A stretch of DNA of 64,000 nucleotides from Elusimicrobiota bacterium (GTDB lineage: Bacteria; Elusimicrobiota; Elusimicrobia; F11). Below are positions 1 to 56,600 of this stretch, one piece after another (position 1 is the first letter of the stretch; every line of letters starts with the position of its first letter). Under the pieces are notes generated by a model, which saw only the letters and a program-made list of their open reading frames with translations, did not search any database and was not told the DNA's origin. The translations under genes were made by a program, and so were the position numbers. The stretch is taken from positions 576,001 through 640,000 of the forward strand of contig JBGAON010000001.1 in assembly GCA_044221725.1 (NCBI GenBank). Reading direction: 5' to 3'.

Positions 1-1
1 T

Positions 2-748: not shown

Positions 749-755
749 AGAAATC

Positions 756-4931: not shown

Positions 4932-4951
4932 GTTCTCCTCCGTTTCGACGG

Positions 4952-5024
4952 TGTAAACGTCTTGTAACAGAGTAGCTTGGAGACGCGTAAGAACGCATTA
5001 AGGGCGGGTTAAAAATCGACGAAG
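4952..5024 (-). promoter_or_regulatory. Conserved bipartite upstream element, copy 1 (probable promoter plus activator box)
   Basis: 27/27 and 30/31 nt blocks shared with 13632-13704, separated by a 15-nt variable spacer. Confidence 0.7.
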
Positions 5025-5171
5025 ATTGTGACACAAATCCCTTGTAAAGAATGGTGTTTGGGTTCACATTGATCGGGTCGTTGTGTTGCGTGATATTTTC
5101 TTTCGCTATGAATAGATCTAGGAATACGAATGGGCTACTTTCGGCTTGTTTTTTCGAATCATTTTTCGCGT

Positions 5172-7736
5172 ATGAATGTTAAGAGAATACTTTCCTTATC
5201 ATTGGCCTGCCTCTTTTTTTCTTCTGCTGTGCGCGCAGACCTTTTGATTGAAACCGTCAACGCGCTTTTCGGCGATGGCGGCCTCGCAACGTACTCCAAA
5301 CTTAACAATCCTTATGGAATCGCGGCCGACAGCTTGGGTAACGTATTCATTGCGGAATATGCGGGCCATCGAATCCGAAAAATTAGGGCCGATGGGGTAA
5401 TTACAACCATCGCGGGAACCGGTTCCCCCGGCTTCTCAGGAGATGGTGGGCCCGCTTTGTCGGCCCAATTCAACCGGCCTCGCTCCATTGCGGTTGATCC
5501 CAATGGGAATGTGTATGTCGCCGATACCGTTAATTACCGGATCCGAAAAATAACCCCCGCTGGAATCATCACCACATTCGCAGGAAACGGCAGTGCCACC
5601 TATTCCGGAGATGGAGGGCCGGCAACGTCGGCAGGTTTCCCCAGTGTCTTTGCGATGGCGGCCGATACTTCCGAAAACATATATGTCGCCGATGATGACC
5701 GTGTCCGTAAAATAAATGCAGCCGGCATCGTTACCACGATTGCCGGAGGAGGTTCCATTTCCGCGCTTGATGCTCCGGCGCTATCCTGCGCCATTTCCCC
5801 TAGAGGATTGGTTTACAGAGACGGCCATCTTTATCTTTCTTCCACGTACAGCGCCCTCATCGGAGATTTAAATCTTTCCAATGGTTTTCTCGCACGCCAC
5901 GCCGGCCGCTACGGAGCAGAAGGCTTCGGCGGTGACGGAGGGCCTGCGCTGAATGCTCAATTCTATTTTCCCTATACGCTCTGCTTCAGCCCCGCTGGAG
6001 AATTGTTCATCAGCGACTATGGAAATCTTCGCGTCAGAAAAATTTCTACCGCTGGGATCATTACCACTGTTGCCGGCAACGGTTTGAGAGGACTGCCCAC
6101 CGAAGGAACTCCCGCCGCATCCGGCCGCATTGGATATCCCGAACATATCGCTTTCGGAGGCCCTCTCAATGAAGTGCTTATCATGGATATCGACAACGAC
6201 AAGGGTCATCGTGTGGATGCCAGTGGCCTTATCTGGACATTTTGTGGCAAAGGCGCTGATCCATGGAGCTTGGCCAGCAACGGCCCAGGACTTATAACGA
6301 TTACCAGCCGTAATCAACATACGCTCTGGCGACTTGGCATTGATACAGGGGTTAGATCGGTGGCAGGAGATCAAACAGCCGGGTTTTCCGGTGATGGAGG
6401 GCCAGCGGCTGGAGCAAGACTCAATATTCCCGATGTGGTCACGGTTGATGTCAACGGAAACACATTTTTTTCCGATCAAAACGCCTCACGCGTCCGCAAA
6501 GTGGACTCGGACGGTATCATCACCACTGTCGCGGGAAATGGGACAGCCGGTTATTCCGGTGACGGAGGCCCGGCCACAGCGGCCAGCATTACTGTTGCGG
6601 GACTTGCGACGGACACAGTCGGAAATCTTTATATTTCCGGAGTAGGTTACATCCGACGGGTTAACACGCTTGGAATTATTGAAACCATCGCCGGTGGCGG
6701 AACGGATTATGATTTCGACGCACCGGCTACAAGTTGCGGACTTCTGGAAGTCGATGGTTTGGCCTGTTTTAATCGTGTTTTATACGTCTGTTCAGCACGA
6801 ACCATTGTTGGAGCACTAAATCTTGACACCGGCTATATGGCGCGATACGCGGGCATGTTTGCCCAACAAGGCTACAGTGGCGATGGCGGGCCAGCGACGT
6901 CGGCCAAACTAAATTCTCCCACAGATTTGGCAGTGGACCTTAGCGGGAACCTCTATATTGCCGATTACACCAACTTTGCAATAAGAAAGGTGACACCCGC
7001 CGGAATTATTTCAACGATCGCCGGTGATGGAATAAACGGATATACCGGTGATGGCGGACCCGCGCATGCGGCTCGACTTTCCTTTATCGGTGGGTTAACG
7101 GTTGATCCTGTGGGCAATATTTTCTTGTCGGATCGCCAAAATCATCTTGTGCGCCGTATTTATCACTCCGAAGGCGGAGACGTTACGCCGCCCTCCATAT
7201 CTGGAGTGGCCGCTGGCAGTGTCACACGCACCGCCGCAACGATCACATGGACCACTGATGAGCCGTCCGATTCGCAAGTGGAATATGGCTTAACCACCGC
7301 TTACGGCACGTCGACTCCTATTAATGGCTCCCTGGTCACAAGCCATTCGATGTCTTTGAGCGGACTTTCCGCCGGTACGCTGTATCATTACCGTGTGAAA
7401 TCTCGCGACGCCGCTGGCAACTTGGCTGTTTCCGGTGATTTTACTTTCACAACAGTTTCACCCGACGTAACTCCACCGGTTATCTCTGGCGTTGGATCAC
7501 GAGACGCCACCGCACGCAGCGCGCGCATTTTCTGGACCACCAACGAACCCGCCACCACTCAAGTTCGTTATGGGCTCACCACCGCTTATGGCGCTACATC
7601 TCCTTTTGAAGCTGCCCTTGTCACCACTCACAACGTTGATTTGGTGGGGCTTACCCCGAACACGCTTTATCATTACCAAGTCGTTTCACAAGATGCCGAC
7701 TCGAATGTTGCCGCTGCACACGCACATGTTTTGTGA
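5172..7736 (+). CDS. Secreted NHL-repeat beta-propeller protein with two C-terminal Fn3-like domains; may be truncated at the C-terminus
   Basis: Signal peptide MNVKRILSLSLACLFFSSAVRA; many G.ITT.AG.G..G.SGDGGPA repeats; TWTTDEPSDSQVEYG and YHYRVKSRDAAGN Fn3-like motifs. The ORF track starts at 5130. Confidence 0.85.
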   Translation: MNVKRILSLSLACLFFSSAVRADLLIETVNALFGDGGLATYSKLNNPYGIAADSLGNVFIAEYAGHRIRKIRADGVITTIAGTGSPGFSGDGGPALSAQFNRPRSIAVDPNGNVYVADTVNYRIRKITPAGIITTFAGNGSATYSGDGGPATSAGFPSVFAMAADTSENIYVADDDRVRKINAAGIVTTIAGGGSISALDAPALSCAISPRGLVYRDGHLYLSSTYSALIGDLNLSNGFLARHAGRYGAEGFGGDGGPALNAQFYFPYTLCFSPAGELFISDYGNLRVRKISTAGIITTVAGNGLRGLPTEGTPAASGRIGYPEHIAFGGPLNEVLIMDIDNDKGHRVDASGLIWTFCGKGADPWSLASNGPGLITITSRNQHTLWRLGIDTGVRSVAGDQTAGFSGDGGPAAGARLNIPDVVTVDVNGNTFFSDQNASRVRKVDSDGIITTVAGNGTAGYSGDGGPATAASITVAGLATDTVGNLYISGVGYIRRVNTLGIIETIAGGGTDYDFDAPATSCGLLEVDGLACFNRVLYVCSARTIVGALNLDTGYMARYAGMFAQQGYSGDGGPATSAKLNSPTDLAVDLSGNLYIADYTNFAIRKVTPAGIISTIAGDGINGYTGDGGPAHAARLSFIGGLTVDPVGNIFLSDRQNHLVRRIYHSEGGDVTPPSISGVAAGSVTRTAATITWTTDEPSDSQVEYGLTTAYGTSTPINGSLVTSHSMSLSGLSAGTLYHYRVKSRDAAGNLAVSGDFTFTTVSPDVTPPVISGVGSRDATARSARIFWTTNEPATTQVRYGLTTAYGATSPFEAALVTTHNVDLVGLTPNTLYHYQVVSQDADSNVAAAHAHVL

Positions 7737-7870
7737 TGGTGGGGCCGCACGCCGTTGAGAAAAGGACAATCAAAAGAGCAGCGCGTCTTATGTTCATGCG
7801 CTTATTTGATAAATTCCCGCCGACGTTAGCTATGCAGATAGGTGCCGCGCTGCGGCACTCTTTGGAAATC

Positions 7871-7953
7871 GGGCATGTGGCGGAATGGCAGACGCAACGG
7901 ACTTAAAATCCGTTTCTCTTCGGAGAGTGTGGGTTCGACTCCCTCCATGCCCA
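7871..7953 (+). tRNA. tRNA-Leu (TAA)
   Basis: GGGCATG/CATGCCC acceptor stem, ACGGA-CTTAAAA-TCCGT anticodon arm, long variable arm, GGTTCGACT T-loop; CCA not encoded. Confidence 0.95.
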
Positions 7954-7985
7954 AAAAAAATCGGAAAGTTTTTCAAGAGGAGGGG

Positions 7986-8003
7986 CGACTCCCTCCATGC
8001 CCA
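7986..8003 (+). repeat. 18-bp direct repeat of the tRNA-Leu 3' end (att-like)
   Basis: CGACTCCCTCCATGCCCA occurs at 7936-7953 and at 7986-8003. Confidence 0.85.
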
Positions 8004-8009
8004 GTATCT

Positions 8010-9203
8010 TTAGTTTGGAATGATAATTTTCATCCCTTTCTTTAAATCGGTGGGGTCTTCCATTAAATGTTTGTTCGCTGCGTAGATCGCGTGCCAGCGG
8101 CTTTTGTCGCCGAGTTCGTTTTGCGCAATGGAACCGAGATTGTCGCCTTCCTTTACCACGTAAACCCGCGTTTCGTTCGTGCGCATCGGCATTGTGATCG
8201 TTGTGTTCTTCGCCAAAGGTACGCTGGGCTCCGGAGTTTTTGACGCGAGGGGGGAATTCGGCTTTGCGTGCGCGAAATTATCGGTTTTAAGGGCGGATCC
8301 AAACTTCATGCCAACGCTCACCGTGTGTCGTCCGCTCAGTTCGTTCAGCATCCCGAACGAATAGTCGAGCGAAAACCGATCCAACGCGAAACCGGCTCCG
8401 AAAGTAATTTCTTTCGTGTTGCTTCCCGCGCGGTATCCTCCCCGCAGTGCCAACGGTCCAATGAAAGTTTCCAATCCCAACGACGGAATGAGTTGTTTCT
8501 CGTTCACCATGTACGGCGCGTCGAGCAGGAGTGTCGTCGGGGCTTTGCCCGAGAAGAGCGAAATTGCTGTTCCGGCGCGGAGCATGCGGGGGAGATTATC
8601 TCCGGTGGTGGCGTATTTGAGTTGCGATCCGTAATTGAGAGCGGCCGCGCCCACGCGAACGCGCGATGACAATTTCATTTGCAATCCGAGATCCACGGCG
8701 GCTGCTTGCGCCGAATATTGTTCGACGAGCGTCGAGCGCAAATATTTTCCGGCGATTCCAAACGACAGCGGGCCCATATTGCGGGAATATCCGAGGCCGA
8801 GCGTGTAATCTTGTTGCGCTTTCACGGAGTGTGTGGCTCCTGAATCTTCGGTTAAATCAAGGTTGCCGCCGCTGTACGCGCCGAACATAAATCCCAGCGA
8901 GGATTTTTTCGACATTGGTTTGCCAACCATCAGTTGGCCTCGCGATTCGTCGATGAGGCCTTGTTGGTAGAGGAACGACGCGCGGCCGGAGCTTAATGTG
9001 CCGAGCGAAGCCGGATTGTAAACAAACGCCGAAATGTCATCGGAGCCAGCCGAGTAGGCTTTGGCCAGCGAGGTGGGGCGTGCGCCGCCGTCGCTCAACA
9101 GCGACAATCCGCCGGACGCCGTTGCCCCAAGCGCGACGGCGGATAAAAGCAGCGGATAAGCCGCTAAGCCGACTTTGACCAACATTTTTTTTCGACGTTT
9201 CAT
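8010..9203 (-). CDS. PorV/PorQ-family outer-membrane beta-barrel protein with a C-terminal LysM domain
   Basis: GARPTSLAKAY, YNPASL, A.DLG, LRGGY and DYSF barrel motifs; LysM motif YVVKEGDNLGSIAQNELGDKSRWHAIYAAN. Confidence 0.85.
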   Translation of the reverse strand: MKRRKKMLVKVGLAAYPLLLSAVALGATASGGLSLLSDGGARPTSLAKAYSAGSDDISAFVYNPASLGTLSSGRASFLYQQGLIDESRGQLMVGKPMSKKSSLGFMFGAYSGGNLDLTEDSGATHSVKAQQDYTLGLGYSRNMGPLSFGIAGKYLRSTLVEQYSAQAAAVDLGLQMKLSSRVRVGAAALNYGSQLKYATTGDNLPRMLRAGTAISLFSGKAPTTLLLDAPYMVNEKQLIPSLGLETFIGPLALRGGYRAGSNTKEITFGAGFALDRFSLDYSFGMLNELSGRHTVSVGMKFGSALKTDNFAHAKPNSPLASKTPEPSVPLAKNTTITMPMRTNETRVYVVKEGDNLGSIAQNELGDKSRWHAIYAANKHLMEDPTDLKKGMKIIIPN

Positions 9204-9225
9204 TTTTTAAGGTGCGACGTGTGAC

Positions 9226-12200
9226 TTAATTTACGATCACAAATTTCTTTTTGGTGACCGGCGAGCCATCTCCGAGATCCATCGTCGCGACGTACACGCC
9301 ACTGGAATACGCGCTGCGGTCCAACTGTTCCGTGTTCGGTCCGCTCGGGCGATCGCCTCGGACCTCACTGATCATGACACCGTCGCTGTTATAGATTCGG
9401 ATATGCACGTTTGATGGCTGCCGAAGTTCGTAGCTGATTTTAGGTGCGTCACCGGGCGCAAACAGTGTCTTGCCGCCCCCCGGGGCTCTTATCTCTTTCG
9501 GGCCTCCAGCTCCTGCGCGACCGACGGAAATTTCCACATCGTCCTGGCCCTGCAAAGAGCCATCCGAGGCGCTCAAGCGCAGTCGGTAAAGTCCTTCGCG
9601 GCCCAAATACACCGAGGTGTTCAACAAATGGGAATCGGTGAACTGAACGGGTGTCGGTCCACTGATAAAACTCCACTCGTAGGTCAGTTGTCCGTTCGGC
9701 AGTCCGTCGTCGGTCACCGTGCCCGCCAAGGTTGCGTATCCGGGTCCCGGAAGGTGTTGGTCCGGCCCCGCGTCGACGATCGGCGCACTGTTCGTTTTGG
9801 GAGTCGGCGCGGCTACGACGGTAACGATGATGTCGTCCGAACCGGTAAGTGCTCCATCCGTGTAAGTGGCACGCAGTTTGTAGACGCCTGGTTCGGTGAA
9901 CGAGGCGTTTTTACCGTCTTCGCTGAATTGAACTTTCGAGGCATCGCCCATCACGACACTCCATCCAACCCAACTCACTTGGTGCGGCGGATTGGGGAAG
10001 CCGTCGTCGGTAACATCCTTAACGACGAGATACGCTTGTGCGGGCAATTCAACAGTTTGTTCGTGCGTGGCGAGCGTGACAACCGGCGGCTGATTTGTAT
10101 GCGCCGCTGGATTGACAATGACAAACACCTCATCCATGGTCGCACTGTTCGTTGGATCGGTGTCAAGGTCCGTTGCGTACAGCCGGAAATGATATTCGCC
10201 CGTTGTAAGATTCGTTATCGACGGATGAAGAACAGTCGGGTCGCTAATCGTCGCTTTTTGTGTCCCCACGGTTTGAATCCATCGCAGCGCCATGCGCCCC
10301 GGAGGATTCGGCAATCCGTCGTCTTCGGCGGTGGAATCGCTAAACTGAAGGGGATCTCCGAGTGTAATGGTCTTATCCGCGCCAGCGTAAATGCGGGGGG
10401 CGTGATTAATATCGCGCACGGTCACGTTCGTGTCCGCGGACGCGGAAAGGTCGGAATCGGTGCACGTCAATCGCAGCACGTAATTTCCGATTTCGGAAAA
10501 TGTCGCTGATATCTTTTGGAATTCGCCAGACTGAGGGTCTGTCAACGTGACATTGCCGGGTCCGCTTTGTTTTGCCCACGTGCACGTAACTCGCGCCGGG
10601 GGATTCGGTAAGCCGTCGTCTTGCGCATAACCGGAAATCATTTCGAGCTGGTGAACCGTCGCAATCACCGGCTGGCTGCCATAGACGTGAGGCGGTTGAT
10701 TGTCAACCGGCGCCGGTGGAGGAAGTTCAACGTCGACCACGAGCATGGCATTGTTTACGAGTTGGGAATCGTTACCGGTCAAGAACAACGTGTAACGACC
10801 ACCGACCGGGAATTTTGCGCGTGTTCTCGGATCATCGGCATTTTCAAAGATTGTTTGTGCCGGCCCGTCGTTTTGACGCCAGTGTGCGGTGACGACACCC
10901 GGAGGGTTTGGCAAGCCGTCATCCGTTACGGACCCTTGCAGTTGCGTCCACTCGTCTCTGTGGGTGCGAATTGCTGGACCCGCATTTACAACGGGAGGTT
11001 GATTTGCCGGAGGAATTGGTCCTTGTGGCTCGACGGTAACGGTGACATCGTCTGTGGCGGTGCCGGTTCTGTTTGTTGCCGCGAGGCGTATCGTGTACGT
11101 GCCAGGCGTTGTGAACCGTGCGGTTGTCTGAAGCGCGTAATAGTCGCCGAAAGTAATTTCTCCCGGACCGTTTACTTTGGACCAATATTGACTGCTTGCG
11201 TTCGTTGCTTGTCCGTTTAGATTCGCTTGTTGGGGAAGCGTAATCGATTGGTCGGGCCCCGCATTGACCGTGGGGGCTGGGGGCAGAACTTCGACGGTGA
11301 CATTTTTGTAAGAGGTCAATTCGCCATCGTAGCCCATTAACTGAAGCACGTAATTTCCGGCGGCTGAAAAAGTTGCTTGGGTTTGTCCTTCCGTTGGATC
11401 AAAAAACACGACATTGCCCGGCCCATCTTGCTTGGACCAACTCCAGGAAGGCTTTCCAGGGACAACAGGGATTCCGTCGTCAGCCACTGTATAGGCAATC
11501 ACGGCCGGGCTATTGAAAGCCACTGTTTGAACAGCGGGAGAAGCCGTTATTTGAGGAGCGCGGTTGTTCGGAGATGAAAAAGTTACCTCAACATCGTCCG
11601 TGGTGGTCAGTAATCCGTCGGTGGCTGTGAGACGTAAAACATAAACGCCCGCGTTATCGGAATCAATGAGCGTCGATAGCGAATTCGCATTTCGAATTGT
11701 GACACGACCGGGCCCACTTATTTTGGTCCATGTGATTGTTAAGGGCCCAGGAATTCCATCGTCGGTTGCTGTCCCTTCAAGCTGAACTGTTGTGGGGTAC
11801 GTAACATTCCGATCCGGGCCTGCGTTTACGACGGGCGCCTTGTTTGGCGAAACCGTCACCGCGACGTTATCGGTTACGAGACGGTTCCCGACGGGATCCC
11901 ATCCGCGGATCTCGAGCATATACGTTCCTTCCATCGAAAAGGTCGCGGTTGTATCGAGCGCCTGACTATTGGCCCAACTGACGGAGCCTGGCCCGCTTGT
12001 TTTGTACCAACCAACGTTCGAAATCCGACCCGCTGCGGTTGCGTGCAGAGATGCGTTTGTCGGGTAGATAATGGATAGGTCCGGGCCTGCGTCGATCATA
12101 CTTTTGATGGTGACCGTCGTGTCATCGGATGCGGTTGCCGCGCCATCGTCAGCGGTAAGACGCAATTGATAGGTTCCGACAACAGGAAAAGAGGCGGCGG

Positions 12201-13611
12201 TGTCGACCGCGTTCGCGTTCGTGAACGAAACCGCTGCGGGCCCGCTCACCTGTGTCCACGTTGTTGTAACCGCTCCCGGCGGGCTGGGGAATCCATCATC
12301 GGTGACGGTTCCATTTAAATTGAGCCGGTCGTTTGGAAAGCCCGTCTGATCGGGACCAGCATCGACGGACGGTGGGGCGTTGGCCGAAATCATCACCGTG
12401 TCTTCGCTCGAAACCAAGCCGTCGCTTGCGGTGAGTTTTAACCAATACGTGCCACCGACCGTGAAATGGACGGACGTTGCAGCCGAGTGCGGATCATCAA
12501 ATGTGACGGATCCCGAAAGAGGTCCGCTGAGTTTGCTCCACGTCACTGTCAACGTCGGTGGGAGCGGCAATCCGTCATCCGTCGCGGTTCCGTTTAATAC
12601 GGCGGCGCCCGGCATGTTGATCTTCTGATCTTCGCCTGCGTTGACAACCGGGTACGAATTGCTTCGGATGAGCAGGTCATCGGTCCCGCTAAGTTGTCCG
12701 TCGTTTGCATCCAGCATCAACCTATAGGTTCCTGGAAACGAAAACGTCACTGTGGTGCGCGCCGAATGCGGGTCCGCAAATGTTGCCACGCCCGGTCCTT
12801 CAAGTTGGATCCACGTATAAGTCAATTTGCCAGGCACCGCGGGTTCTCCATCATCGGTGGCGGAGCCCGTTAACGTCACCGCATCACGATAATTGTTGAT
12901 CATTTGATCGGCACCCGCATTCACGAGCGGGCGACGGTTCTCTTCGGGCGGATAGTTCACGTCAAAATTTACGGTGTCTGACACTGTGGAAATTTGGTCG
13001 GTTGCGGTGAGTTTCAAAACGTAATGGCCGTTGCCGGAGAACGCCACGTTGGTCTCAACATCTTGTGCATTCGCAAATGCAACGTCCCCTGGTCCACTTT
13101 CGAGAGACCAACTCCAGCTGAACGACGGGTTCGGAATGATTTCATCAAACACCGATCCCTGCAGCCGAGCATGATCGGAAGAGATGGATTGGTCGGGACC
13201 AGCGTCCACAAATGGCGGCTTGTTTACGAGTGGGACCTCCCAATAGGTTTGAACTCCCGACTCGGTGAGGTGGCCTTGGGCATCCCTTGATTTGACGATA
13301 TACGAGCCAGATGCCCAGCGTTGAACAATAGTGGCAGGAATTATGTCCCCGTGGTGATAAGCCATTTGGGGCTTGAGTGGCGTATTTAGCCAGCCATTAT
13401 AAAAAGTAAGGTAGCTGCTTTGCGAATCGGCAGGAACATTGGTGTCCCACCACAGGTAAACCGCGTCCATCCCATAATATTTTCCGACTTCGTAATGAAC
13501 ATTTGAAATTATAGGTCCGTCGGCGTGCGCGAGAGTTAGCGAAAAAATGGAAGTCGCAATCAAGCCCCATAATTTGCCGCGATTTCTCAGCGTAGATTTT
13601 CCAGTATTCAT
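9226..13611 (-). CDS. Secreted surface protein with about 13 PKD-like repeats and a C-terminal FlgD-Ig/T9SS-sorting-like domain; paralog of 756-4931
   Basis: Signal peptide ending AHA; same repeat consensus as 756-4931; C-terminus YSSGVYVATM...KKKFVIVN. Confidence 0.85.
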   Translation of the reverse strand: MNTGKSTLRNRGKLWGLIATSIFSLTLAHADGPIISNVHYEVGKYYGMDAVYLWWDTNVPADSQSSYLTFYNGWLNTPLKPQMAYHHGDIIPATIVQRWASGSYIVKSRDAQGHLTESGVQTYWEVPLVNKPPFVDAGPDQSISSDHARLQGSVFDEIIPNPSFSWSWSLESGPGDVAFANAQDVETNVAFSGNGHYVLKLTATDQISTVSDTVNFDVNYPPEENRRPLVNAGADQMINNYRDAVTLTGSATDDGEPAVPGKLTYTWIQLEGPGVATFADPHSARTTVTFSFPGTYRLMLDANDGQLSGTDDLLIRSNSYPVVNAGEDQKINMPGAAVLNGTATDDGLPLPPTLTVTWSKLSGPLSGSVTFDDPHSAATSVHFTVGGTYWLKLTASDGLVSSEDTVMISANAPPSVDAGPDQTGFPNDRLNLNGTVTDDGFPSPPGAVTTTWTQVSGPAAVSFTNANAVDTAASFPVVGTYQLRLTADDGAATASDDTTVTIKSMIDAGPDLSIIYPTNASLHATAAGRISNVGWYKTSGPGSVSWANSQALDTTATFSMEGTYMLEIRGWDPVGNRLVTDNVAVTVSPNKAPVVNAGPDRNVTYPTTVQLEGTATDDGIPGPLTITWTKISGPGRVTIRNANSLSTLIDSDNAGVYVLRLTATDGLLTTTDDVEVTFSSPNNRAPQITASPAVQTVAFNSPAVIAYTVADDGIPVVPGKPSWSWSKQDGPGNVVFFDPTEGQTQATFSAAGNYVLQLMGYDGELTSYKNVTVEVLPPAPTVNAGPDQSITLPQQANLNGQATNASSQYWSKVNGPGEITFGDYYALQTTARFTTPGTYTIRLAATNRTGTATDDVTVTVEPQGPIPPANQPPVVNAGPAIRTHRDEWTQLQGSVTDDGLPNPPGVVTAHWRQNDGPAQTIFENADDPRTRAKFPVGGRYTLFLTGNDSQLVNNAMLVVDVELPPPAPVDNQPPHVYGSQPVIATVHQLEMISGYAQDDGLPNPPARVTCTWAKQSGPGNVTLTDPQSGEFQKISATFSEIGNYVLRLTCTDSDLSASADTNVTVRDINHAPRIYAGADKTITLGDPLQFSDSTAEDDGLPNPPGRMALRWIQTVGTQKATISDPTVLHPSITNLTTGEYHFRLYATDLDTDPTNSATMDEVFVIVNPAAHTNQPPVVTLATHEQTVELPAQAYLVVKDVTDDGFPNPPHQVSWVGWSVVMGDASKVQFSEDGKNASFTEPGVYKLRATYTDGALTGSDDIIVTVVAAPTPKTNSAPIVDAGPDQHLPGPGYATLAGTVTDDGLPNGQLTYEWSFISGPTPVQFTDSHLLNTSVYLGREGLYRLRLSASDGSLQGQDDVEISVGRAGAGGPKEIRAPGGGKTLFAPGDAPKISYELRQPSNVHIRIYNSDGVMISEVRGDRPSGPNTEQLDRSAYSSGVYVATMDLGDGSPVTKKKFVIVN

Positions 13612-15479: not shown

Positions 15480-18215
15480 ATGGATTCTTACCGATCGAAA
15501 TCATTATTGAATTTGAAAAATCAAGCCGTTTCGTTTTTTGACTTAAACGCGCTCAAACGGGCCAACGTTGGCCACATCGAAAAACTTCCGTTCACGATAA
15601 AAATTCTGCTCGAGAATCTTTTGCGGCAAGAAGACGGCGCGAATGTCACCAAAGACGATATTGCGGCGGTCGCATCGTGGGATCCCGCCAAAGCGAGCGA
15701 CAAAGAAATTTCGTTTATGCCGGCGCGCGTGATCCTTCAAGACTTTACCGGCGTTCCGTGCGTTGTGGACATGGCGTCCATGCGCGATGCGGTCAAGCAG
15801 ATGGGCGGTGACCCAGAGAAAATAAATCCTTTGCAGCAAGTGGATCTGGTGATCGATCACTCGGTGCAAGTGGACCGGTTTGGAAGCGCGAATGCGTTCG
15901 ATGAGAACGTGAAGATTGAATATCAGCGCAATAGCGAGCGCTATTCGTTCCTTAAGTGGGGGCAGAAGTCGCTGAAGAATTTCCGCGTGGTTCCTCCGGG
16001 CACGGGTATCGTGCATCAGGTGAATTTGGAATATCTCGGTCAAGTGGTTTACTCGCGCGCGGAGAACGGTGCGTCGGTTGTTTTTCCGGATACGGTCATA
16101 GGCACCGACTCGCATACCACGATGATTAATGGCCTCGGGATTGTGGGTTGGGGTGTCGGTGGAATCGAAGCCGAGGCCGCGATGCTTGGCCAGCCAGTGT
16201 CGATGCTTATTCCTGAAGTTGTTGGATTTAAATTGCATGGTCGTTTGCCCGAAGGGGCGACCGCCACGGATCTCGTGCTCGTTGTGACGCAAATGCTGCG
16301 CAAAAAAGGGGTTGTTGGAAAATTTGTGGAGTTTTACGGCAAAGGCCTTTCGAACCTTTCTTTGCCGGACCGCGCCACGCTCGCGAACATGGCGCCGGAA
16401 TACGGAGCGACCGTTGGCTTTTTCCCAGTGGATGAAGAAACACTCTCGTATTTGAAACTCACAGGCCGTTCGGAAGAATCGATCGAGCTTGTGCGCGCAT
16501 ACACAAACGTGCAGGGTCTTTTCCGTACCGATGCTACGCCCGATCCTATTTATTCGGACACGCTCGAGCTTGATCTTTCGTCGGTAAAGCCCAGCGTCGC
16601 TGGCCCGAAGCGTCCGCAGGATCGTGTGAATTTGTCGGATGCAAAGAAATCTTTTGAAGATGCGTTGCCGACTCTGTCGAAGAAGGGCCCTCGCCCTAAC
16701 CCTCCCCCTGAAGGGAGAGGGAATCCTGTTTCTGAAGAAGGTCATCCCCTCTCCCTTCAGGGAGAGGGTGCCCCGCGAAGCGGGGCGGGAGAGGGGTTAT
16801 CCGACGGATCTGTGGTCATTGCTGCGATCACGAGTTGCACGAATACTTCGAACCCCAGCGTTTTGGTTCAAGCGGGACTGCTTGCAAAAAAAGCGTCGGA
16901 CCTCGGGCTCAAAACCAAGCCGTGGGTGAAAACAAGTCTCGCGCCGGGCTCGAAAGTTGTGATCGATTATTTGCAGGAAGCAAAATTGCTCGAGCCGCTG
17001 GAGAAATTGGGATTTTATTGTGTCGGGTACGGATGCACCACGTGCATCGGAAATTCCGGGCCGCTGCCGGATGCCGTTGAGAAACCAATCAAAGAGAACG
17101 ACTTGGTTGTTTCGTCCGTGCTGTCGGGCAATCGAAATTTTGAGGGCCGCATTCATCCGTCGGTGCGCGCGAATTATTTGATGAGTCCGCCGCTCGTGGT
17201 GGCGTACGCGCTGGCCGGCAGTATGAAGATCGATATCACGACCGAGGCCATCGGCCAAAGCAAAGAGGGGAAGCCCGTCTATTTGAAAGATATTTGGCCC
17301 ACGCAGCAGGAAGTTCAGCAAGCGGTGCGCGGTTCCGTGAAGAAAGATTTGTTCGATAAAGAATACGCGAAGGTTTTTGACGGCGACAAATCGTGGCAAG
17401 GCGTGCCGGCTCCGCAGGGAAATCGTTTCGCTTGGGAAGAGAATTCCACGTACGTTCGCCGCGCGGCATTTCTCGAGAACATCCCAAAGACACCAGCGCC
17501 CGTGAAGGACATTAAAGGCGCGCGGGTGTTGGCCTATCTTGGCGACTCGGTCACGACCGATCACATTTCGCCGGCCGGTTCCATTGCCGTCGACAGCCCG
17601 GCCGGCAAATATTTAATTGCCAAGGGCGTTCAGAAGCCGGACTTTAATTCGTACGGCGCCCGTCGCGGTAATCACGAAATAATGATTCGCGGCACGTTCG
17701 CGAACGGCCGAATAAAGAATCAGCTCGTGCCAGGCGTTGAGGGGGGCATCAGCAAGAGATTTCCCGAAGGAACTGTTGCTCCTATTTATGACGTGGCGAT
17801 GGCGTACGCGAAAGAGCACACGCCGCTCGTTGTTTTGGCCGGAAAAGAATACGGCTCCGGCTCATCGCGTGATTGGGCCGCAAAAGGAACGATGATGCTC
17901 GGAGTAAAAGCGGTTATCGCGGAGAGCTATGAGCGTATTCACCGTAGCAACCTCGTAATGATGGGCGTTCTGCCGCTGCAATTGCCAGACGGAAAAAACG
18001 CAGCGTTCTTTGGGCTCACGGGAGAAGAAACATTTGATATTTCGGGTGTCGAGTCGAACTTAACACCGCTAAAGGTGTTGAAAGTCAAAGCCACAGCGCC
18101 GGACAAGTCGGTGAAAGAGTTCAACGTCGTCATGCGCATCGATACGCCCAAAGAAATCGAATACTACCAGCACGGCGGCATTTTGCCGTATGTGCTTAGG
18201 CAAATTTTGAAGTAA
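15480..18215 (+). CDS. acnA: Aconitate hydratase A
   Basis: QDFTGVP, GTDSHT, SCTNTSNP, GCTTCIGNSG, NRNFEGR, TTDHISPAG and GSSRDWAAKG motifs. Confidence 0.97.
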   Translation: MDSYRSKSLLNLKNQAVSFFDLNALKRANVGHIEKLPFTIKILLENLLRQEDGANVTKDDIAAVASWDPAKASDKEISFMPARVILQDFTGVPCVVDMASMRDAVKQMGGDPEKINPLQQVDLVIDHSVQVDRFGSANAFDENVKIEYQRNSERYSFLKWGQKSLKNFRVVPPGTGIVHQVNLEYLGQVVYSRAENGASVVFPDTVIGTDSHTTMINGLGIVGWGVGGIEAEAAMLGQPVSMLIPEVVGFKLHGRLPEGATATDLVLVVTQMLRKKGVVGKFVEFYGKGLSNLSLPDRATLANMAPEYGATVGFFPVDEETLSYLKLTGRSEESIELVRAYTNVQGLFRTDATPDPIYSDTLELDLSSVKPSVAGPKRPQDRVNLSDAKKSFEDALPTLSKKGPRPNPPPEGRGNPVSEEGHPLSLQGEGAPRSGAGEGLSDGSVVIAAITSCTNTSNPSVLVQAGLLAKKASDLGLKTKPWVKTSLAPGSKVVIDYLQEAKLLEPLEKLGFYCVGYGCTTCIGNSGPLPDAVEKPIKENDLVVSSVLSGNRNFEGRIHPSVRANYLMSPPLVVAYALAGSMKIDITTEAIGQSKEGKPVYLKDIWPTQQEVQQAVRGSVKKDLFDKEYAKVFDGDKSWQGVPAPQGNRFAWEENSTYVRRAAFLENIPKTPAPVKDIKGARVLAYLGDSVTTDHISPAGSIAVDSPAGKYLIAKGVQKPDFNSYGARRGNHEIMIRGTFANGRIKNQLVPGVEGGISKRFPEGTVAPIYDVAMAYAKEHTPLVVLAGKEYGSGSSRDWAAKGTMMLGVKAVIAESYERIHRSNLVMMGVLPLQLPDGKNAAFFGLTGEETFDISGVESNLTPLKVLKVKATAPDKSVKEFNVVMRIDTPKEIEYYQHGGILPYVLRQILK
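16688..16796. repeat. Inverted doublet of the CCCTCTCCC-n-GGGAGAGGG repeat, in frame within acnA
   Basis: Copy A at 16688-16724 and copy B at 16744-16796; translated as PRPNPPPEGRGNPVSEEGHPLSLQGEGAPRSGAGEG. Confidence 0.85.
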
Positions 18216-18239
18216 TAAAGCAGAACCCCTCCTCTGATT

Positions 18240-18656
18240 GTATTCCCTCTCCCTTTAGGGAGAGGGTTAGGGAGAGGGAAAGATGCGGCAATTCGCAAAG
18301 AATCTGCGGAAGGATCAAACCGATGCAGAAAATCGACTTTGGTTTTTCCTGCGAAACAAGAGATTGGGCGGACACAAGTTTTATCGCCAGTTTGTTTTTG
18401 GTCCTTATATCGCTGATTTTTGTTGTCGGAGAAAAGGGTTGATCATTGAGCTCGATGGAGGGCACCATGCGGAAGCGAAACTCAAAGATGCGATTCGAAC
18501 AGAATATCTGCGAAGGCGGGGATTTAAGGTTCTCCGGTTTTGGAATAACGAAGTGATGAAGAATGTGGAACTGGTTTTGGAAGTGATTCTGAAAAATCTT
18601 GGTGCTGGGGACTCTTTCCCTCACCCTAACCCTCTCCCTAAAGGGAGAGGGGATAC
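18240..18656. mobile_element. Putative element: DUF559 endonuclease gene between 43-bp inverted repeats
   Basis: 18240-18282 and 18614-18656 are inverted repeats with 2 mismatches; mobility is inferred only. Confidence 0.6.
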
Positions 18657-18675
18657 ATTTTATTATGAAGACTGA
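18283..18675 (+). CDS. DUF559 (YcjD-like, Vsr/PD-(D/E)XK fold) endonuclease
   Basis: AK.LRK.QTDAE..LW, F.RQ..FGPYIADF, IELDG..H, GFKVLRFWN. Confidence 0.9.
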   Translation: MRQFAKNLRKDQTDAENRLWFFLRNKRLGGHKFYRQFVFGPYIADFCCRRKGLIIELDGGHHAEAKLKDAIRTEYLRRRGFKVLRFWNNEVMKNVELVLEVILKNLGAGDSFPHPNPLPKGRGDTFYYED

Positions 18676-19945
18676 CACGACTCCTCAAGACTCACTCGTT
18701 CGCGACGTCACCGCGCTTGGAACGCAAGCGCGGGTGGCGGCGCGCGTGCTGGCAATGCTTGAGGTCGATGTGAAAAATAAGGCGCTGGGCGCGATGGCGC
18801 AGGCCATTGTTGATGCAAAGAAGTCCATTGTCCAAGCAAACATGAAAGACGTGGAAGCCGCCACAAAAGCGGGGCAGAGCAAAGCGCTGATTGATCGATT
18901 GACGTTGAACGACGAACGTGTCGAAGGAATGGCCCAAGGGTTGCGCGAGATGGAGCAGCTGAACGATCCGACCGGCGAAGTCCTTCGCGAGTGGACGCGC
19001 CCCAACGGTATGCGGATTCGGCAGATTCGCGTTCCGCTTGGTGTGATCGGAATGATTTACGAAGCGCGCCCGAACGTAACAGCCGAAGCGGCCGGTTTGT
19101 GTTTGAAATCGGGCAACGCTGTTATCCTGCGCGGCGGCTCGGAGGCATACCACTCCAACAAGATTCTTATTGATCTGATTTCCGATGCTGCGTCAAAAGC
19201 CGGTGTGCCCGCGCACGCGATTCAGATGTTGCCGCCACAAGATCGGCGCAGCACAAGGATATTGTCGCAGTTGAACGGGCTCGTTGACTTGATTATCGCC
19301 CGCGGCAGCGAAGAGATGATCAAAGACGTGTCGGCCAACGCGACGGTGCCGGTTCTCGGTCACGGGAAGGGCGTGTGTCACGTTTACGTCGACAAGGCAG
19401 CCGATATGGACAAGGCCGTGAGCATCGCTTTCAACGCAAAGGTGCAACGCCCGGGCGTTTGCAACGCGATGGAATCATTGCTCGTGCACGAGCATATGAT
19501 GTGGGACATCCTGCCCAAAATTTCTGGCAAGTACATTAAGGCGGGCGTGGAGATGCGCGGCGACGATCGCGTGGTGGGCCTTATTCCGCAGGCGAAGCCG
19601 GCGGGGGAGCGCGATTGGGGCACCGAGTATCACGACAAAATTGTTTCGATTAAGATTGTTGATAGCTTGGACGACGCAATTGAGCACATCAACAAATACG
19701 GATCGGGCCACACGGACAGCATCATCACCGAAGACAAAAAGGCGGCCGCAAAATTTGAAAAGGCCGTCGATTCGTCCTGCGTAATGGTGAACGCGTCCAC
19801 GCGTCTGCACGATGGTGGCGTGTTCGGGTTCGGATCCGAGATCGGAATTTCGACACAGAAGTTGCACGCGCGCGGCACGATGGGCCTGCGCGAACTCACC
19901 ACCACGAAGTACATCGTCGAAGGCACCGGACAAATTCGCGAATAA
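18665..19945 (+). CDS. proA: Gamma-glutamyl phosphate reductase
   Basis: VPLGVIGMIYEARPNVT, VCNAME, GSEIGISTQKLHARG; ATG 18665 preferred over the ORF-track start. Confidence 0.95.
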   Translation: MKTDTTPQDSLVRDVTALGTQARVAARVLAMLEVDVKNKALGAMAQAIVDAKKSIVQANMKDVEAATKAGQSKALIDRLTLNDERVEGMAQGLREMEQLNDPTGEVLREWTRPNGMRIRQIRVPLGVIGMIYEARPNVTAEAAGLCLKSGNAVILRGGSEAYHSNKILIDLISDAASKAGVPAHAIQMLPPQDRRSTRILSQLNGLVDLIIARGSEEMIKDVSANATVPVLGHGKGVCHVYVDKAADMDKAVSIAFNAKVQRPGVCNAMESLLVHEHMMWDILPKISGKYIKAGVEMRGDDRVVGLIPQAKPAGERDWGTEYHDKIVSIKIVDSLDDAIEHINKYGSGHTDSIITEDKKAAAKFEKAVDSSCVMVNASTRLHDGGVFGFGSEIGISTQKLHARGTMGLRELTTTKYIVEGTGQIRE

Positions 19946-44081: not shown

Positions 44082-45521
44082 TTAGAAGTCGACTCCCAGT
44101 TCCTTCGCAAGCGTTGGGGCAATAATTTCGTTTGTGGTTGGTTTTTCGTTGAGCGTTGCACCAAAACCTTTTCCGTAGAAAAAAAGTGGTACCGCAGCAT
44201 CGTAATCGTAGGTCGATCCGTGGCTCGTGCCCGAAACCTTTTCTGTGACGAGAACGCCTTCCTTCATGCGGAAAGTTAAGTCGCCCGATCGTCCGGGGCA
44301 GTTGCTACGCTGAAATGTGTTGCTGAACTTGTCTTGTTGGATAAGCGGATTGTTTAAATACACCATCTCAACGTCGGGCAACGTTTTCATTTCGGTCTGA
44401 ATTCGCAGCAAGAAACTTCCCCAGTCCAATTTCTTTTGTTGAACCAATTCTTTGTTGAAATAAATATCCGGGAATGAAACCCGCATGATCCATTTTGTAC
44501 CGGGGGCGGGATAAATACTTTGGCACAACGTTTCGAGTCTGCGCGAAAATTCGGCCACGAGGATGCGTTTGGCTCCCATGCGGCGACCCTCGATACTTTC
44601 GGGAATCGGTAGAACGCCGTGATCGGACGTGAGCGCCAACACAAAATTGCCGGCCGTCTTCTTCGAAATTACTGCGATCAGCTCGTTCAGCATCTGGTCG
44701 AGTGCCAATATTTGCTCGCGCATCTGTCCGCCGTTCGGCCCGTACAAATGGCCAATGTAATCGGTCGCCGAAAAACTGACCGCGAGAAGATCGGAATGAT
44801 CGTCTTCTCCGAGATGTTTTTCTTCAAGCGCATTTTTCGCTAGTTCGAACGTGGCACGGTCGGTGGAAAATGAAGCGGGATTGAGCGGAAGGGGATGGTT
44901 GGCATTAAATTTATCAAGCCAGGCCGAAACACTTGGGTACGCTTTTGACGACACAAATCCTTTCGCTTTCTTGTTGTACCACACCACGGCGTCCGCTTTC
45001 TTCCCGCCCAGCATGATAGCCGCCCGATCTTTATAAGAAATCGCAACGACCGTGGCGCTGGAGTCTGTTGTCTTTAACGCGTCCCCCAACGTCAACCCGC
45101 GTAACTGACCTGGACCCATTTCGAAATCTGGGTCGTCAATTGAGAGCACCGTTTTTCCGGTCGATCGATCGAACCAATCATTTCCAATAATGCCGTGCAC
45201 GCTCGGTGGTTGGCCGGTGATAATCGTCGCGTGGCCGGGCGCGGTTTCGGTCGGGACGTGATTCAGTTTCGCGTGCGTGTATTGCGTGCCTCTTGTCCCC
45301 AGCGCGCGAAAGCCGCCGGTGAAATCTTTCGCGTAGCGGTCGAGATAATCGGCCCGGAATTGGTCGATGACGACGATCACGGCGAGGCGGGGGGCGGCGT
45401 GGAGCGTCGAGCAGAAGAATAAAAAGAAGGCGAACAACCGTATTCCCTCTCCCTTTAGGGAGAGGGGGCCCGAAGGGCGGGTGAGGGAAGGCGGTAAAGA
45501 AAAGGAAAGTTTGTTGGTCAT
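44082..45521 (-). CDS. Alkaline phosphatase superfamily protein (PafA-like phosphatase/phosphodiesterase)
   Basis: VIDQFR.DY, T.TAPGHA.I (Thr nucleophile), KDRAA, D..GH.YGP, TSDHG, HG..Y.YD. Confidence 0.85.
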   Translation of the reverse strand: MTNKLSFSLPPSLTRPSGPLSLKGEGIRLFAFFLFFCSTLHAAPRLAVIVVIDQFRADYLDRYAKDFTGGFRALGTRGTQYTHAKLNHVPTETAPGHATIITGQPPSVHGIIGNDWFDRSTGKTVLSIDDPDFEMGPGQLRGLTLGDALKTTDSSATVVAISYKDRAAIMLGGKKADAVVWYNKKAKGFVSSKAYPSVSAWLDKFNANHPLPLNPASFSTDRATFELAKNALEEKHLGEDDHSDLLAVSFSATDYIGHLYGPNGGQMREQILALDQMLNELIAVISKKTAGNFVLALTSDHGVLPIPESIEGRRMGAKRILVAEFSRRLETLCQSIYPAPGTKWIMRVSFPDIYFNKELVQQKKLDWGSFLLRIQTEMKTLPDVEMVYLNNPLIQQDKFSNTFQRSNCPGRSGDLTFRMKEGVLVTEKVSGTSHGSTYDYDAAVPLFFYGKGFGATLNEKPTTNEIIAPTLAKELGVDF

Positions 45522-45562
45522 CTTTCCCTCACCCTGCCCTCTCCCTAAAGGGAGAGGGGATA
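45440..45562. repeat. Gene-less inverted doublet of the DUF559-flanking repeat
   Basis: 45440-45466 is identical to 18240-18266; 45522-45562 is nearly identical to 18614-18655. Confidence 0.9.
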
Positions 45563-45577
45563 TAAATTGAGAACCGT

Positions 45578-53659: not shown

Positions 53660-56600
53660 AAATTTCCGGAATGCCGCGCGGTGCGCTGGCGTGGTGGCTC
53701 CTTCAGAACAAAAGCGATAAGAAAAGGCTCGTCGTGCTGCCCGCCGAAGAAGAGGTGATGAGCCTCGTCGACGATATGCGCGCGCTTTTTAAAATTCCCG
53801 ACGCGGGCCTGCCGAAGCCGTTCCTTATCGAAGGGTACACGAGCGACGATGAGCCGGAGCGACTGACGGCTCTTTACCAGTGGACATTTGGCAAAGCGAT
53901 GTTGCTCGTCGCGTCAAAAGAAGGATTAGCGCTTCCGGTCGATCGACCGGACGACCTGCGGCGACGCACATTCAAACTAAAACCCGGCATGACGATTGGC
54001 CGATCGGCGTTCGAAGAAATGCTTTCGAGCGCTGGCTACACGCGCAACGAACGAACCGAGCAGGTGGGCGAATATTCGATTCGCGGTGATGTGGTCGACA
54101 TTTGGCCGACGCGCTTGGGCGCGATTCGGCTCACTTGGAATTTCGACACGCTCGAAGCGATTCGCACGATCGACATGCACACGCTGCGGTCGGAGGAATT
54201 TCTTGGCGAAGCCACGCTTTATCCGATAACGGCCGGAACCGGCGCAACCCTTGAGGACTACAGTCCCTCTCCCCAACGGGAAGGGGGCCGGGTGAGGGAC
54301 GGCGCTGAGGATGACGGAGAGATTGTCTTTGTCGAACCCGGCGAAAACAGTCACCCAGAATTTCAACCGCTGCCCGCCATCGGCGGTAGCATGGACCGCC
54401 TCCGCGATCAACTCACAAATTGGCACGACGACGATTGGAAGGTCACCCTTTTCTGTCACAACCGCGGCGAACGGGAGCGTCTTGAAGAATTGCTGATCGA
54501 TCCCCTCACCGCTGCTCGGGGCGCGCGGCCACCCTGGCTTCCTCCTATTATTATAGGGGAGCTTGAACACGGGTTTGCAAGCGACCAATTGCGCTTGGCC
54601 GTGCTGCCGAACAGCGAGATCTTCGGCCGCTTCCGCAAGCGTGTGCGATTACCGAAGTTTGAGGGCGGCGGAGCTTTGGGTTCCGCGCTCGATGTTCGGC
54701 CGAACGATTATCTCGTGCATGAGAAACACGGCATTGGGCGGTATCAGGGGCTGCGGTCGCTCAAAGTCGGAAAAGTGACCTCGGAGTTCCTCGCGATCGA
54801 ATACAAAGGCGGCGACAAACTTTACGTTCCTATTTTTGAGATTCAGCAGGTGCAAAAATACTTGGGCGCGGAAGGAAAGCGCCCGGCGCTCTCAAGTTTG
54901 GACACGGCCGCCTGGGAACGCATCAAGTCCAAGGTTAAAGAAGACGTCGCGAAATTGGCCGCGGATCTGTTGCGCAAAGCAGCAAAACGCTCCGTGCGGC
55001 CCGGTTATGCGTTTCCGCCGCGCACGCATTTGGAAGACGAATTTTCGGCGAGCTTTATGTACGAGCTCACGCCCGATCAGAAGAAAACACTCGATGAAGT
55101 GGAACAAGACATGATGGCGCCCAAGGCGATGGATCGCTTGATATGTGGCGACGTGGGTTACGGAAAAACCGAAATTGCGATGCGCGCGGCGCTGAAGGCG
55201 GCGCTCGCCGGCAAGCAAGTCTGTCTTTTGTGTCCGACGACGATTCTTGCCGAACAGCACGCGCGAAATTTTGCCGAACGCATGGCCGATTACCCGGTGA
55301 CCGTGAAATTTATTTCGCGGTTTCAAGAAAAGTCGGAACAAAAGAAAATTCTCGAGCTGGTCGCCAAAGGAGGCGTCGATATCATTATAGGTACGCACCG
55401 GCTTTTGTCGGCCGATGTGACGTTCGCCAACGTCGGACTTTTGATTATCGACGAGGAACACCGATTTGGCGTGAAGCAAAAGAACAAACTGCTCGCGCTG
55501 CGCGAAACCGTGGATGTGTTGTCGTTGACCGCGACGCCGATTCCGCGAACGCTCGCATCTTCGCTGGCCGGCATCAAAGATTTGTCGGTGATCGAAACGC
55601 CGCCCGAAGGCCGGTTGCCGATCTCGACCCATGTCGGACTTTTTGATGAAGATCTCATGGCGAAAGCCGTGCAACAAGAATTGGACCGCGGCGGACAAGT
55701 TTTTTACGTGCACAATCGTGTGAAGACGCTGCAAGCCCGAAAAACGTGGCTCGAGGGAATTTTGCCATCCATCCGCATTTCCATGGCCCACGGGCAGATG
55801 AAAGAAGACGAACTTGAATCCGCCATGCACGATTTCTTGCACAAAAAAGTCGACGTGCTCTTAGCCACCACGATTATTGAATCGGGATTGGATATACCAT
55901 CGGTCAACACGCTGATCGTCGAAGAAGCGGAAGAATTGGGGCTCGCCCAGCTCTATCAATTGCGTGGCCGCGTCGGTCGTTCGAAAATGCGTGCGTATTG
56001 CTATTTGTTTTATGCAACGGGTGGACTTACAACCGATGCGAAAAAACGATTGGAAGCGCTGAAAGAATTCACGGCGCTTGGAAGCGGTCTGCGTCTTGCA
56101 ATGCGGGATATGGAAATTCGTGGCGCCGGAAACTTGCTCGGACCACAGCAGCACGGCAACATGGCCGCGGTCGGTATCGAAACCTACAGCAAGCTGCTAA
56201 ACGAAGAGATCCACAAAATTCAAGGCGAAGCGCCCGAAGAAGCGGCCGGCGGACCGCTGTTTGAACTGTCCCTTTCGGCTTACATTCCCGACGACTATAT
56301 GCCGGCGGAGTCCGAGCGTGTGCACATGTACAAACGAATTTTGTCGGCGAACGCCGTTGATCTTCAAAAAATTAAAGAAGAACTGGTGGACCGGTGCGGG
56401 CCGCTCGTTCCGCCAGTAAAACTTTTGTTTGATACAGCAGCGCTGCGGCTCATCGCACACGACAAGGGCGTGAGCGAGGTGCATGAAGAGTCCGACGGCA
56501 TCCTCATTTATTTCCGTCCAAACTTTAAATTGCCCGAGGCTTCGTTCAATCGGTTGTTTTCAGCAAAACCGACCGAGCTTACGTTGATTCCCGGGCCGCC

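Follow-up and report, generated by a model that had tools for sequence, protein, structure and literature searches.

Why does a small nuclease-like gene sit between two copies of a repeat that is dispersed through the same genome? The question is raised by a locus of an Elusimicrobiota bacterium (GenBank assembly GCA_044221725.1, contig JBGAON010000001.1), of which we analysed a 64,000-nucleotide stretch (positions 576,001 to 640,000), here called the window. A sequence-only reading of the window had described a DUF559 gene bracketed by inverted repeats and had proposed a nuclease that recognises its own hairpins and spreads them. DUF559 is a widespread family without demonstrated function. 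The repeats follow the BoxC/PIT/TMECO pattern, which according to the accessible text of Holder et al. 2015 (PMC4666352) has been known since the 1990s, was found in more than 260 genomes in one survey, is linked to local instability and has no known partner protein. Pairing the two makes both questions, that of the repeat's partner and that of DUF559, testable in E. coli K-12.

Anatomy of the cassette

When the locus was re-measured, the 43-bp inverted repeats with two mismatches reported around the DUF559 gene between acnA and proA were present: of the 43 positions of 18240-18282, 2 deviate from 18614-18656 read in reverse complement, and the extended arms span 45 nt at 96%. The features are as follows.

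15480..18215, plus strand: acnA (aconitase), upstream host gene
18240..18282, plus strand: left repeat, a BoxC/TMECO type-A unit pointing into the gene (from sequence and published pattern), with C arm 18245-18253, loop 18254-18257, G arm 18258-18266, TTA, and purine tail 18270-18278
18283..18675, plus strand: DUF559 gene (YcjD-like, Vsr-like fold), 130 aa (from ORF, Pfam and fold)
18614..18656, minus strand: right repeat, a BoxC/TMECO type-A unit in inverted orientation that lies within the 3' end of the ORF
18665..19945, plus strand: proA-like aldehyde dehydrogenase family gene, downstream host gene, which we take, with the earlier reading, to be proA

In each arm, a hairpin of 9 bp, a spacer of 3 nt and a purine tail of 9 nt follow one another, with the tail pointing into the gene. 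The earlier reading described each repeat as a hairpin; the conserved feature is not the hairpin alone but the hairpin together with a mirror third strand. The ORF at 18283-18675 reads through the right repeat, as also described before. This repeat encodes the C-terminal tail of the protein, and the stop of the ORF overlaps the start of the proA-like gene at 18665. The purine tail of the left repeat resembles a Shine-Dalgarno sequence and is plausibly the ribosome-binding site of the DUF559 gene here; the distance from tail to aligned gene start ranges from 2 to 143 nt in homologues, which argues against such a role in general. The right hairpin scores as terminator-like, and a promoter scan of 18100-18800 returned no promoter. 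In the lowest-energy DNA fold of the left arm, calculated with ViennaRNA, which models no triplex, the C arm pairs with the tail and not with the adjacent G arm. PADLOC gave weak and partial matches only, so no defence system was assigned.

Identity of the repeat

Both arms fit the TMECO pattern CCCTCNCCC-N3-6-GGGNGAGGG-N3-GGGNGAGGG exactly, with a type-A TTA loop. Judged by this pattern, the repeat flanking the DUF559 gene is a member of the BoxC/PIT/TMECO triplex motif, which supports the likeness to enterobacterial boxC elements noted in the sequence-only reading. In the accessible text of Holder et al. (PMC4666352), TMECO is equated with BoxC and PIT; an isolated TMECO strand, an E. coli oligonucleotide, folds as a triplex in vitro, but no stable triplex was found in duplex DNA or in vivo, and no mobility gene was found near the motifs. 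That text contains no word starting with 'nuclease' or 'ycjD'. With the repeats described there, ours shares the pattern, the dispersed singlets and the inverted doublets; unlike them, it frames a DUF559 gene, sits in frame in genes and occurs in subtypes matched to paralogues. The literature searched, for the most part the text of openly accessible papers, yielded neither a link between DUF559/YcjD and BoxC/PIT/TMECO nor a report of binding, cutting or transposition in this system. In Rfam, no family corresponds to the repeat; sub-threshold matches to miRNA hairpins were rejected as an identity.

Does the tail behave like a third strand? Hairpins alone were sought near 104 DUF559 loci, which avoids circularity, and of the 136 hairpins found, the 78 with any G-rich tail were kept. 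In 68 of these 78, the tail mirrored the purine arm of its own hairpin perfectly, with G answered by G and A by A or T, whereas 2000 permutation draws gave 33 on average and 44 at most; as the 78 rows are related sequences, the result reads as covariation across subtypes and not as 78 independent events. Where the hairpin arms are asymmetric, the tails are mirror and not direct copies. The predicted third strand follows purine-motif triplex (mirror) rules.

The DUF559 protein

Residues 2-106 of the window protein match PF04480 (DUF559) with E 1.3e-39 and 134.9 bits against a cut-off of 20.6. The protein also matches the YcjD model PRK09767 (E 1e-27, below its equivalog cut-off) and the N. gonorrhoeae NGO0050 structure 3hrl (E 2e-39). 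No solved structure comes closer than the latter, a putative endonuclease; next in rank is the catalytic domain of the homing endonuclease I-Bth0305I (Foldseek E 2.6e-5, TM 0.68-0.75), and Vsr scores lower. We know of no function for YcjD or NGO0050.

The catalytic-type residues D, E-x-DG and H noticed before were located as E16, D45, E56, D58, H62 and D69. The spacing E16-D45-D58-H62 equals that of E73-D102-D115-H119 in Caulobacter VsrA, residues which have been mapped in VsrA onto the Vsr active site. With respect to Vsr (E25, D51, H64(D), H69, D97), the equivalents E16, D45, D58 and H62 are assigned by spacing and not by superposition; D69, two residues further along than in VsrA, is the likely fifth residue. 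The window protein thus keeps the Vsr-type residue set intact and is predicted to be active. Between congeners, the DUF559 gene showed pN 0.24 and pS 0.96 (saturated), which indicates purifying selection, though the gene evolves faster than its neighbour (pN 0.11). Its GC3 is 0.45 against 0.61-0.70. One 151-nt contig from an RNA library falls within the gene at a depth of 2.9 and was not counted as expression.

Dispersed copies and a second paralogue

All five further copies listed by the sequence-only reading (16688, 16744, 45440, 45522 and 54264) were found in the window, where they are arranged as follows.

16688..16796, no strand assigned: tails-out doublet, in frame in a variable linker of acnA
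45440..45563, no strand assigned: gene-less doublet between two minus-strand genes
54264..54298, plus strand: single, more diverged unit, in frame in mfd

Hence three of the five lie in frame, two in acnA and one in mfd. The acnA doublet combines one short-spacer unit with one unit that carries an extra stem-loop, and the doublet at 45440..45563 has the same orientation as the cassette and near-identical ends. Across the window's own genome (G000), 31 hairpin matches were obtained, a few of them terminator-like, compared to 1 in a Markov simulation. More in-frame units were seen in long ORFs at G000:C1:296508-296573, C2:134996-135135, C3:187521-187544, C5:288487-288574 and C3:504414-504532; the hosts are, by eye, queG-, dnaX-, cobA/hemD- and prpD-like genes and an ORF of 2240 aa, and 15-50 residues are added. 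At G000:C4:568190-568593, one inverted unit is followed by five type-2 units in tandem with a 71-nt period, a BIME-2-like layout. Elsewhere in the window, the genes at positions 1-13611 are large and rich in internal repeats, by eye of PKD-like and NHL-like type, and a stretch of about 300 nt occurs there twice on two occasions, the copies being separated by 8.47 kb.

Contig C2 of G000 carries a second DUF559 gene (G000:C2:137447-137755). It is 47% identical to the window paralogue, and the repeats around it belong to another subtype, whose loop is long and whose tail differs. Upstream of it are several decaying repeat fragments, and in the region G000:C2:137047-138116 (L001) about 209 nt of this gene, together with flanks, recur in tandem as a truncated copy. 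Strict patterns found 16 copies of the first subtype (T1) and 19 of the second (T2) in G000, both dispersed, and no mixed-subtype doublet among 32 loci. The DUF559 genes are the only genes of G000 enclosed by an inward pair; one self-overlapping left-arm match was a pattern artefact.

As the sequence-only reading had stated for the window, no transposase flanked by the repeat was found in G000 among the Y1, IS110, rve and DDE families. We rejected several candidate movers: the sole Y1 transposase gene has its own 39-nt terminal repeats, rve and DDE_Tnp_1 matches lie at least 15 kb from any unit and are not framed by the motif, and the same lack of framing applies to two small GIY-YIG genes. 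IS110 gave no match in G000. The Y1 gene (G000:C4:572548-575874, L004), with its 39-nt terminal inverted repeats, has a duplicated 21-nt terminator-like sequence on both sides. One small GIY-YIG gene (G000:C3:719300-719950, L177) has its own short hairpins and lies between 37-nt direct repeats, one of which resembles a tRNA 3' end by eye. G000 also holds 21 NTS-like units; neither small GIY-YIG gene is framed by them, and they are possibly orphan repeats of an Ssn system.

Gene and repeat subtype across the phylum

Four congeners were compared with subtype patterns drawn from gene flanks, so that flank copies are included in the counts.

G000: framed genes T1 and T2; T1/T2/T4 counts 16/19/0
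G001: framed genes T1 and T4; T1/T2/T4 counts 22/1/37
G002: framed gene T2; T1/T2/T4 counts 0/10/2
G003: framed gene T4; T1/T2/T4 counts 0/1/4

A subtype was present in 4-37 copies where its own gene was present and in 0-2 copies where it was absent. The flank sequence of DUF559 and the dispersed subtype, which the sequence-only reading had suggested comparing across genomes, thus co-vary in these four congeners, though subtype orphans exist elsewhere. With only a T2-framed gene, G010 carries 30 T1 copies and G004 carries 9; without any gene, G005 has 21 T2 copies and G008 has 4; G018 has 15 T3 copies and no T3-framed gene. Conversely, T3-framed genes occur with few strict copies in G022 (0) and G029 (1). 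Weak PF04480 matches in G013, G023, G025 and G018 belonged to larger proteins that lack the motif, and we left them out of the cognate genes.

The cassette is orthologous at acnA-proA in G000 and G001, and the cassette-free site that had been proposed as a comparison was found in relatives: the junction is short and lacks the cassette in G004 (where the genes overlap), G006, G007, G008 and G011. In G003 (L035), the slot is taken by an NTS-like hairpin pair and in G002 (L037) by another repeat, presumably of a CGTC type. Three repeat systems (DUF559 cassette, NTS-like pair and CGTC-type repeat) are therefore seen at one slot in four congeners. The doublet in acnA recurs in G001, where the order of its two unit types is exchanged, is absent in G006-G008 and persists as a decayed remnant in G002, which has no T1 gene.

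In a survey of 301 genomes of the phylum with a completeness of at least 90% (counts read off tables), 59 had a DUF559 gene. At least 20 generic motifs were found in 26 of the 59 gene-positive but only 5 of the 242 gene-negative genomes, although Fisher values overstate the association since the genomes are related. Seen from the repeat, 26 of the 31 repeat-rich genomes (at least 20 motifs) had the gene, against a base rate of 59 in 301. With a threshold of at least 10 motifs, the numbers were 33/59 and 12/242; reversed-pattern controls reach 9. Units with an inserted stem-loop escape both the strict detector and the generic pattern, which explains the low counts of many gene-positive genomes. 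Five gene-less genomes are repeat-rich: these orphans, 95-99% complete, have 28-64 repeats and no DUF559 gene even at E 0.01.

Homologues in other phyla, E. coli and Neisseria

Is the arrangement peculiar to this phylum? From more than 584 loci in a GTDB scan we used the best 80, which favours a close subfamily; 75 of them had full flanks. Within these best loci with full flanks, the strict motif occurred within at most 300 nt in 53/75 and formed an inward pair in 31/75 (controls: 1/143 distal windows, 0/750 shuffles). Allowing for an inserted stem-loop, the relaxed motif flanked 74/75 and formed an inward pair in 51/75 (controls: 6/184 and 3/194). Some more distant homologues are unflanked (L021, L162, L165). 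On the protein tree, the subtype changes 15 times, a value reached by 2 of 500 shuffles, most of which gave 18-23. Of the 101 forks of this weakly resolved tree, 57 are open; five doubtful motif calls of 7 nt were removed by hand, and L110 was relabelled T1. The 15 changes indicate that the subtype is labile; the two G000 paralogues fall in different tree groups. The tree carries a modest signal and is no proof of gene-repeat co-evolution.

In E. coli, ycjD is a DUF559 gene with a BoxC unit about 170 nt downstream. In strain FDAARGOS_1291, the 3' end of ycjD extends across an inverted BoxC that is intact there but from which 12 nt have been lost in K-12. By gene family and repeat, ycjD is the same cassette as that of the window, though a different hairpin lies upstream of it. 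A preprint on ycjD/eefRABCD (10.1101/2024.08.01.606150) notes the 12-nt difference at the 3' end, but its accessible text does not note the repeat. In an N. gonorrhoeae record (L182), the gene of the 3hrl-type protein NGO0050 has BoxC-like units upstream and downstream, direct and not inverted as in the window cassette.

The published pattern gave 23 copies in K-12, equal to Holder's count, and the ycjD region is present in 3374 of 5426 E. coli genomes. In a sample of 60 spread rows, with one small record excluded, 37 rows with ycjD had 13-33 places (median 23) and 22 chromosomes without it had 3-20 (median 5), with 16-20 places in 3 of these 22; the places include one non-repeat match, and the comparison rests on few independent losses. 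Exact BoxC counts were 33 in SX23, 23 in K-12, 16 in FDAARGOS_1291, 11 in O157:H7 and 2 in LF82, so that O157:H7 kept 11 copies without ycjD.

How copies arise

Outside 44 cassettes, we found no excess of target-site duplications compared to swapped pairs, in agreement with the sequence-only reading, to which none had been visible. Polymorphic sites were examined in E. coli by comparing 32 SX23 loci (L184-L229) with 15 K-12 windows (L213-L227) chosen to cover suspected differences. Thirteen distinct sites could be aligned, 2 of them shared by both strains and 11 different. At 8 of the differing sites, K-12 has in place of BoxC a sequence that we take to be REP/BIME-like from its motif; in the remaining three, BoxC lay beside an extra REP, a terminator-like hairpin was replaced, or there was a plain gap. 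None of the 11 differing sites was a clean insertion, and each may reflect a gain or a loss of BoxC. BoxC insertions in BIME regions were reportedly described in a 1997 Genetics paper. Taken together, the E. coli sites and the acnA-proA junction suggest replacement at permissive slots shared by several repeat systems. In Logan contigs of the likely source sample (8 of 20 listed runs), neither an empty allele nor an excision joint was found; apparent joints at 85% likeness were rejected as they came from repeats of other organisms.

The gene itself is present in mostly 1-3 copies per genome, and DUF559 was found in only 27 of 72,556 plasmid records, mostly chromids or chromosomes, and in 3 of 50,697 phage records. 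The earlier picture of an autonomous cassette plus non-autonomous copies therefore holds in so far as the gene-less doublets resemble the cassette ends, but 'autonomous' overstates the mobility, given the low copy number, the orthologous position at acnA-proA in two congeners and the near-absence from plasmids and phages. In three relatives, with Pfam confirmation, the repeat-framed DUF559 domain is fused in frame into HsdS-, HsdM- and HsdR-type subunits; such cassettes in three type I restriction-modification subunits imply that the whole cassette relocates at times. The fusions seen were L160 (G288), L168 (G186), L172 (G261) and L174 (G101), three assigned by Pfam and L174 by eye.

A partner of the repeat or a bystander?

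We consider it quite probable that the DUF559 protein is a partner of the repeat in some way. With more reserve, we lean towards the reading that the gene and its two inward BoxC/triplex repeats are one cassette, whose protein recognises and nicks its own subtype, and that host repair keeps and occasionally copies the units. Built on the observed anatomy, gene-repeat association, subtype matching, residue set, mirror covariation and lack of target-site duplication, this reading would involve recognition, cutting and spreading by an active enzyme. The substrate may be the single strand in its folded form, a hairpin joined by the third strand, as it becomes exposed during replication, transcription or DNA uptake. 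The enzyme would nick the cognate subtype, and recombinational repair would then replace 50-300 nt at permissive sites without a clean insertion. In this way, host repair would keep units and doublets and occasionally copy them into new sites, and the gene would be inherited mostly vertically in 1-3 copies, rarely relocating and sometimes in frame into other genes.

But why should a gene whose product would spread the repeats be so sedentary itself? Low copy number, vertical inheritance at acnA-proA, purifying selection, the few plasmid (27/72,556) and phage (3/50,697) records and the lack of target-site duplication would also fit a protein that recognises the repeat, as SsnA does NTS, but serves the host, for example by trimming incoming or looped single-stranded DNA, tuning recombination or curbing repeats, which themselves multiply by host recombination and slippage. 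SsnA offers a precedent, as it modulates transformation and spreading of NTS by it is not shown in the accessible text of Chenal et al. 2025 (PMC11893778). We regard such a domesticated role as a serious but unlikely alternative, since by itself it leaves unexplained why a subtype is dispersed mainly beside its own gene, why gene-less doublets copy the cassette ends and why whole cassettes sit in frame in unrelated genes. Still less likely appears a passenger, a Vsr-like mismatch-repair nuclease whose repeats serve as ribosome-binding site or terminator or were captured with the gene, without being its substrate. The SD-like left tail and the terminator-like right hairpin would suit it, and so would Caulobacter VsrA, a DUF559 protein with the same residue spacing, an SOS phenotype and a proposed role in T:G repair (PMC12907096); but in the accessible text, its authors leave the activity of VsrA uncharacterised, G000 (94% complete) gave no match to PF00145 despite its two DUF559 genes, and a repair role predicts neither the 51/75 inward pairs nor the subtype matching.

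The least probable explanation in our view is a MITE-like element mobilised in trans, through some further transposase or through recombination at REP sites, with DUF559 as cargo between the repeats. Repeat-rich genomes without the gene speak for it, and the swap of BoxC for REP/BIME-like sequence at 8 of 11 polymorphic E. coli sites could reflect another enzyme. Against it stands the inventory of families searched in G000: the only Y1 transposase has 39-nt terminal repeats of its own, IS110 is unmatched, rve and DDE matches keep at least 15 kb from any unit, the motif frames neither of the two small GIY-YIG genes and no other gene lies inside an inward pair.

Returning to the cassette with a nicking enzyme, a bolder version is conceivable, although we think it doubtful: DUF559/YcjD nucleases might read a three-stranded DNA fold, each tuned to its own subtype. 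They would then drive a gene-plus-repeat system that evolved independently of RAYT/REP and Ssn/NTS and is the third of its kind; needing no transposase, it would spread through replacement by nick and repair and compete with the other repeat systems for genomic slots. If this held, DUF559 would be the first example in bacteria of a natural protein that partners an intrastrand DNA triplex. If the cassette reading is true, it would define a family of structure-specific nucleases of about 106 aa with natural specificity variants, explain why core proteins (acnA, mfd, dnaX-like) contain repeat-derived peptides and allow the Caulobacter VsrA phenotype to be read in another way. As G000 harbours two paralogues and two subtypes in one cell, a 2x2 cross-specificity assay is possible.

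Comparison with known systems

With Vsr and Caulobacter VsrA, the window protein has the fold class and the positions of catalytic residues in common, VsrA being a DUF559 protein itself. Unlike for Vsr, neither a linked nor a genomic C5 cytosine methylase (PF00145) was found for the window gene in G000 (94% complete). For VsrA, Matthey et al. 2026 (PMC12907096) report an SOS response in cells without cytosine methylase and propose T:G mismatch repair; the accessible text does not characterise the activity and describes no flanking repeats of vsrA. The closest characterised fold is the EDxHD homing endonuclease I-Bth0305I, an example of how a domain of the Vsr-like kind can power selfish spread through cutting and repair (Taylor et al. 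2011, PMC3239194, accessible text). In contrast to I-Bth0305I, the window protein is a single 106-aa domain without N-terminal NUMOD/HTH, intron or intein, and unlike EDxHD homing endonucleases, DUF559 has no conserved homing site and its neighbouring genes vary. Insertion sequences and MITEs with target-site duplication differ as well, as no excess of such duplications was found outside the cassettes.

The likeness to RAYT/REP (REPIN) systems comprises a low-copy chromosomal gene framed by its own repeat, non-autonomous inverted doublets and rarity on plasmids and phages (in part from PMC11893778 and PMC5581495). Unlike there, no HUH/Y1 transposase (PF01797) lies between the repeats and there is no GTAG tag; without this domain, no strand-joining chemistry is known for the DUF559 protein. 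With Ssn/NTS, the cassette shares its layout: the gene of a small nuclease with a single domain lies between hairpin repeats that are also scattered over the genome, and every homologue has a repeat variant of its own. Even the strength of association is similar: in the accessible text of Chenal et al. 2025 (PMC11893778), 42% of Ssn genes are framed on both sides and 81% of repeat-rich genomes have the gene, compared to 51/75 and 26/31 for DUF559. That text does not mention DUF559 or Vsr. The differences concern the protein, since Ssn is a GIY-YIG nuclease (cd10448) and the window protein has a Vsr-like PD-(D/E)XK fold outside GIY-YIG; the repeat, as NTS is unrelated in sequence and the mirror third strand belongs to the window repeat; and the activity, which is proven for Ssn (PMC11893778, accessible text) and predicted for DUF559. 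By analogy, the locus is thus best read as an Ssn/NTS- or RAYT/REP-like system on a Vsr-like fold that is a member of neither, and Ssn/NTS, rather than RAYT, is the closer analogue.
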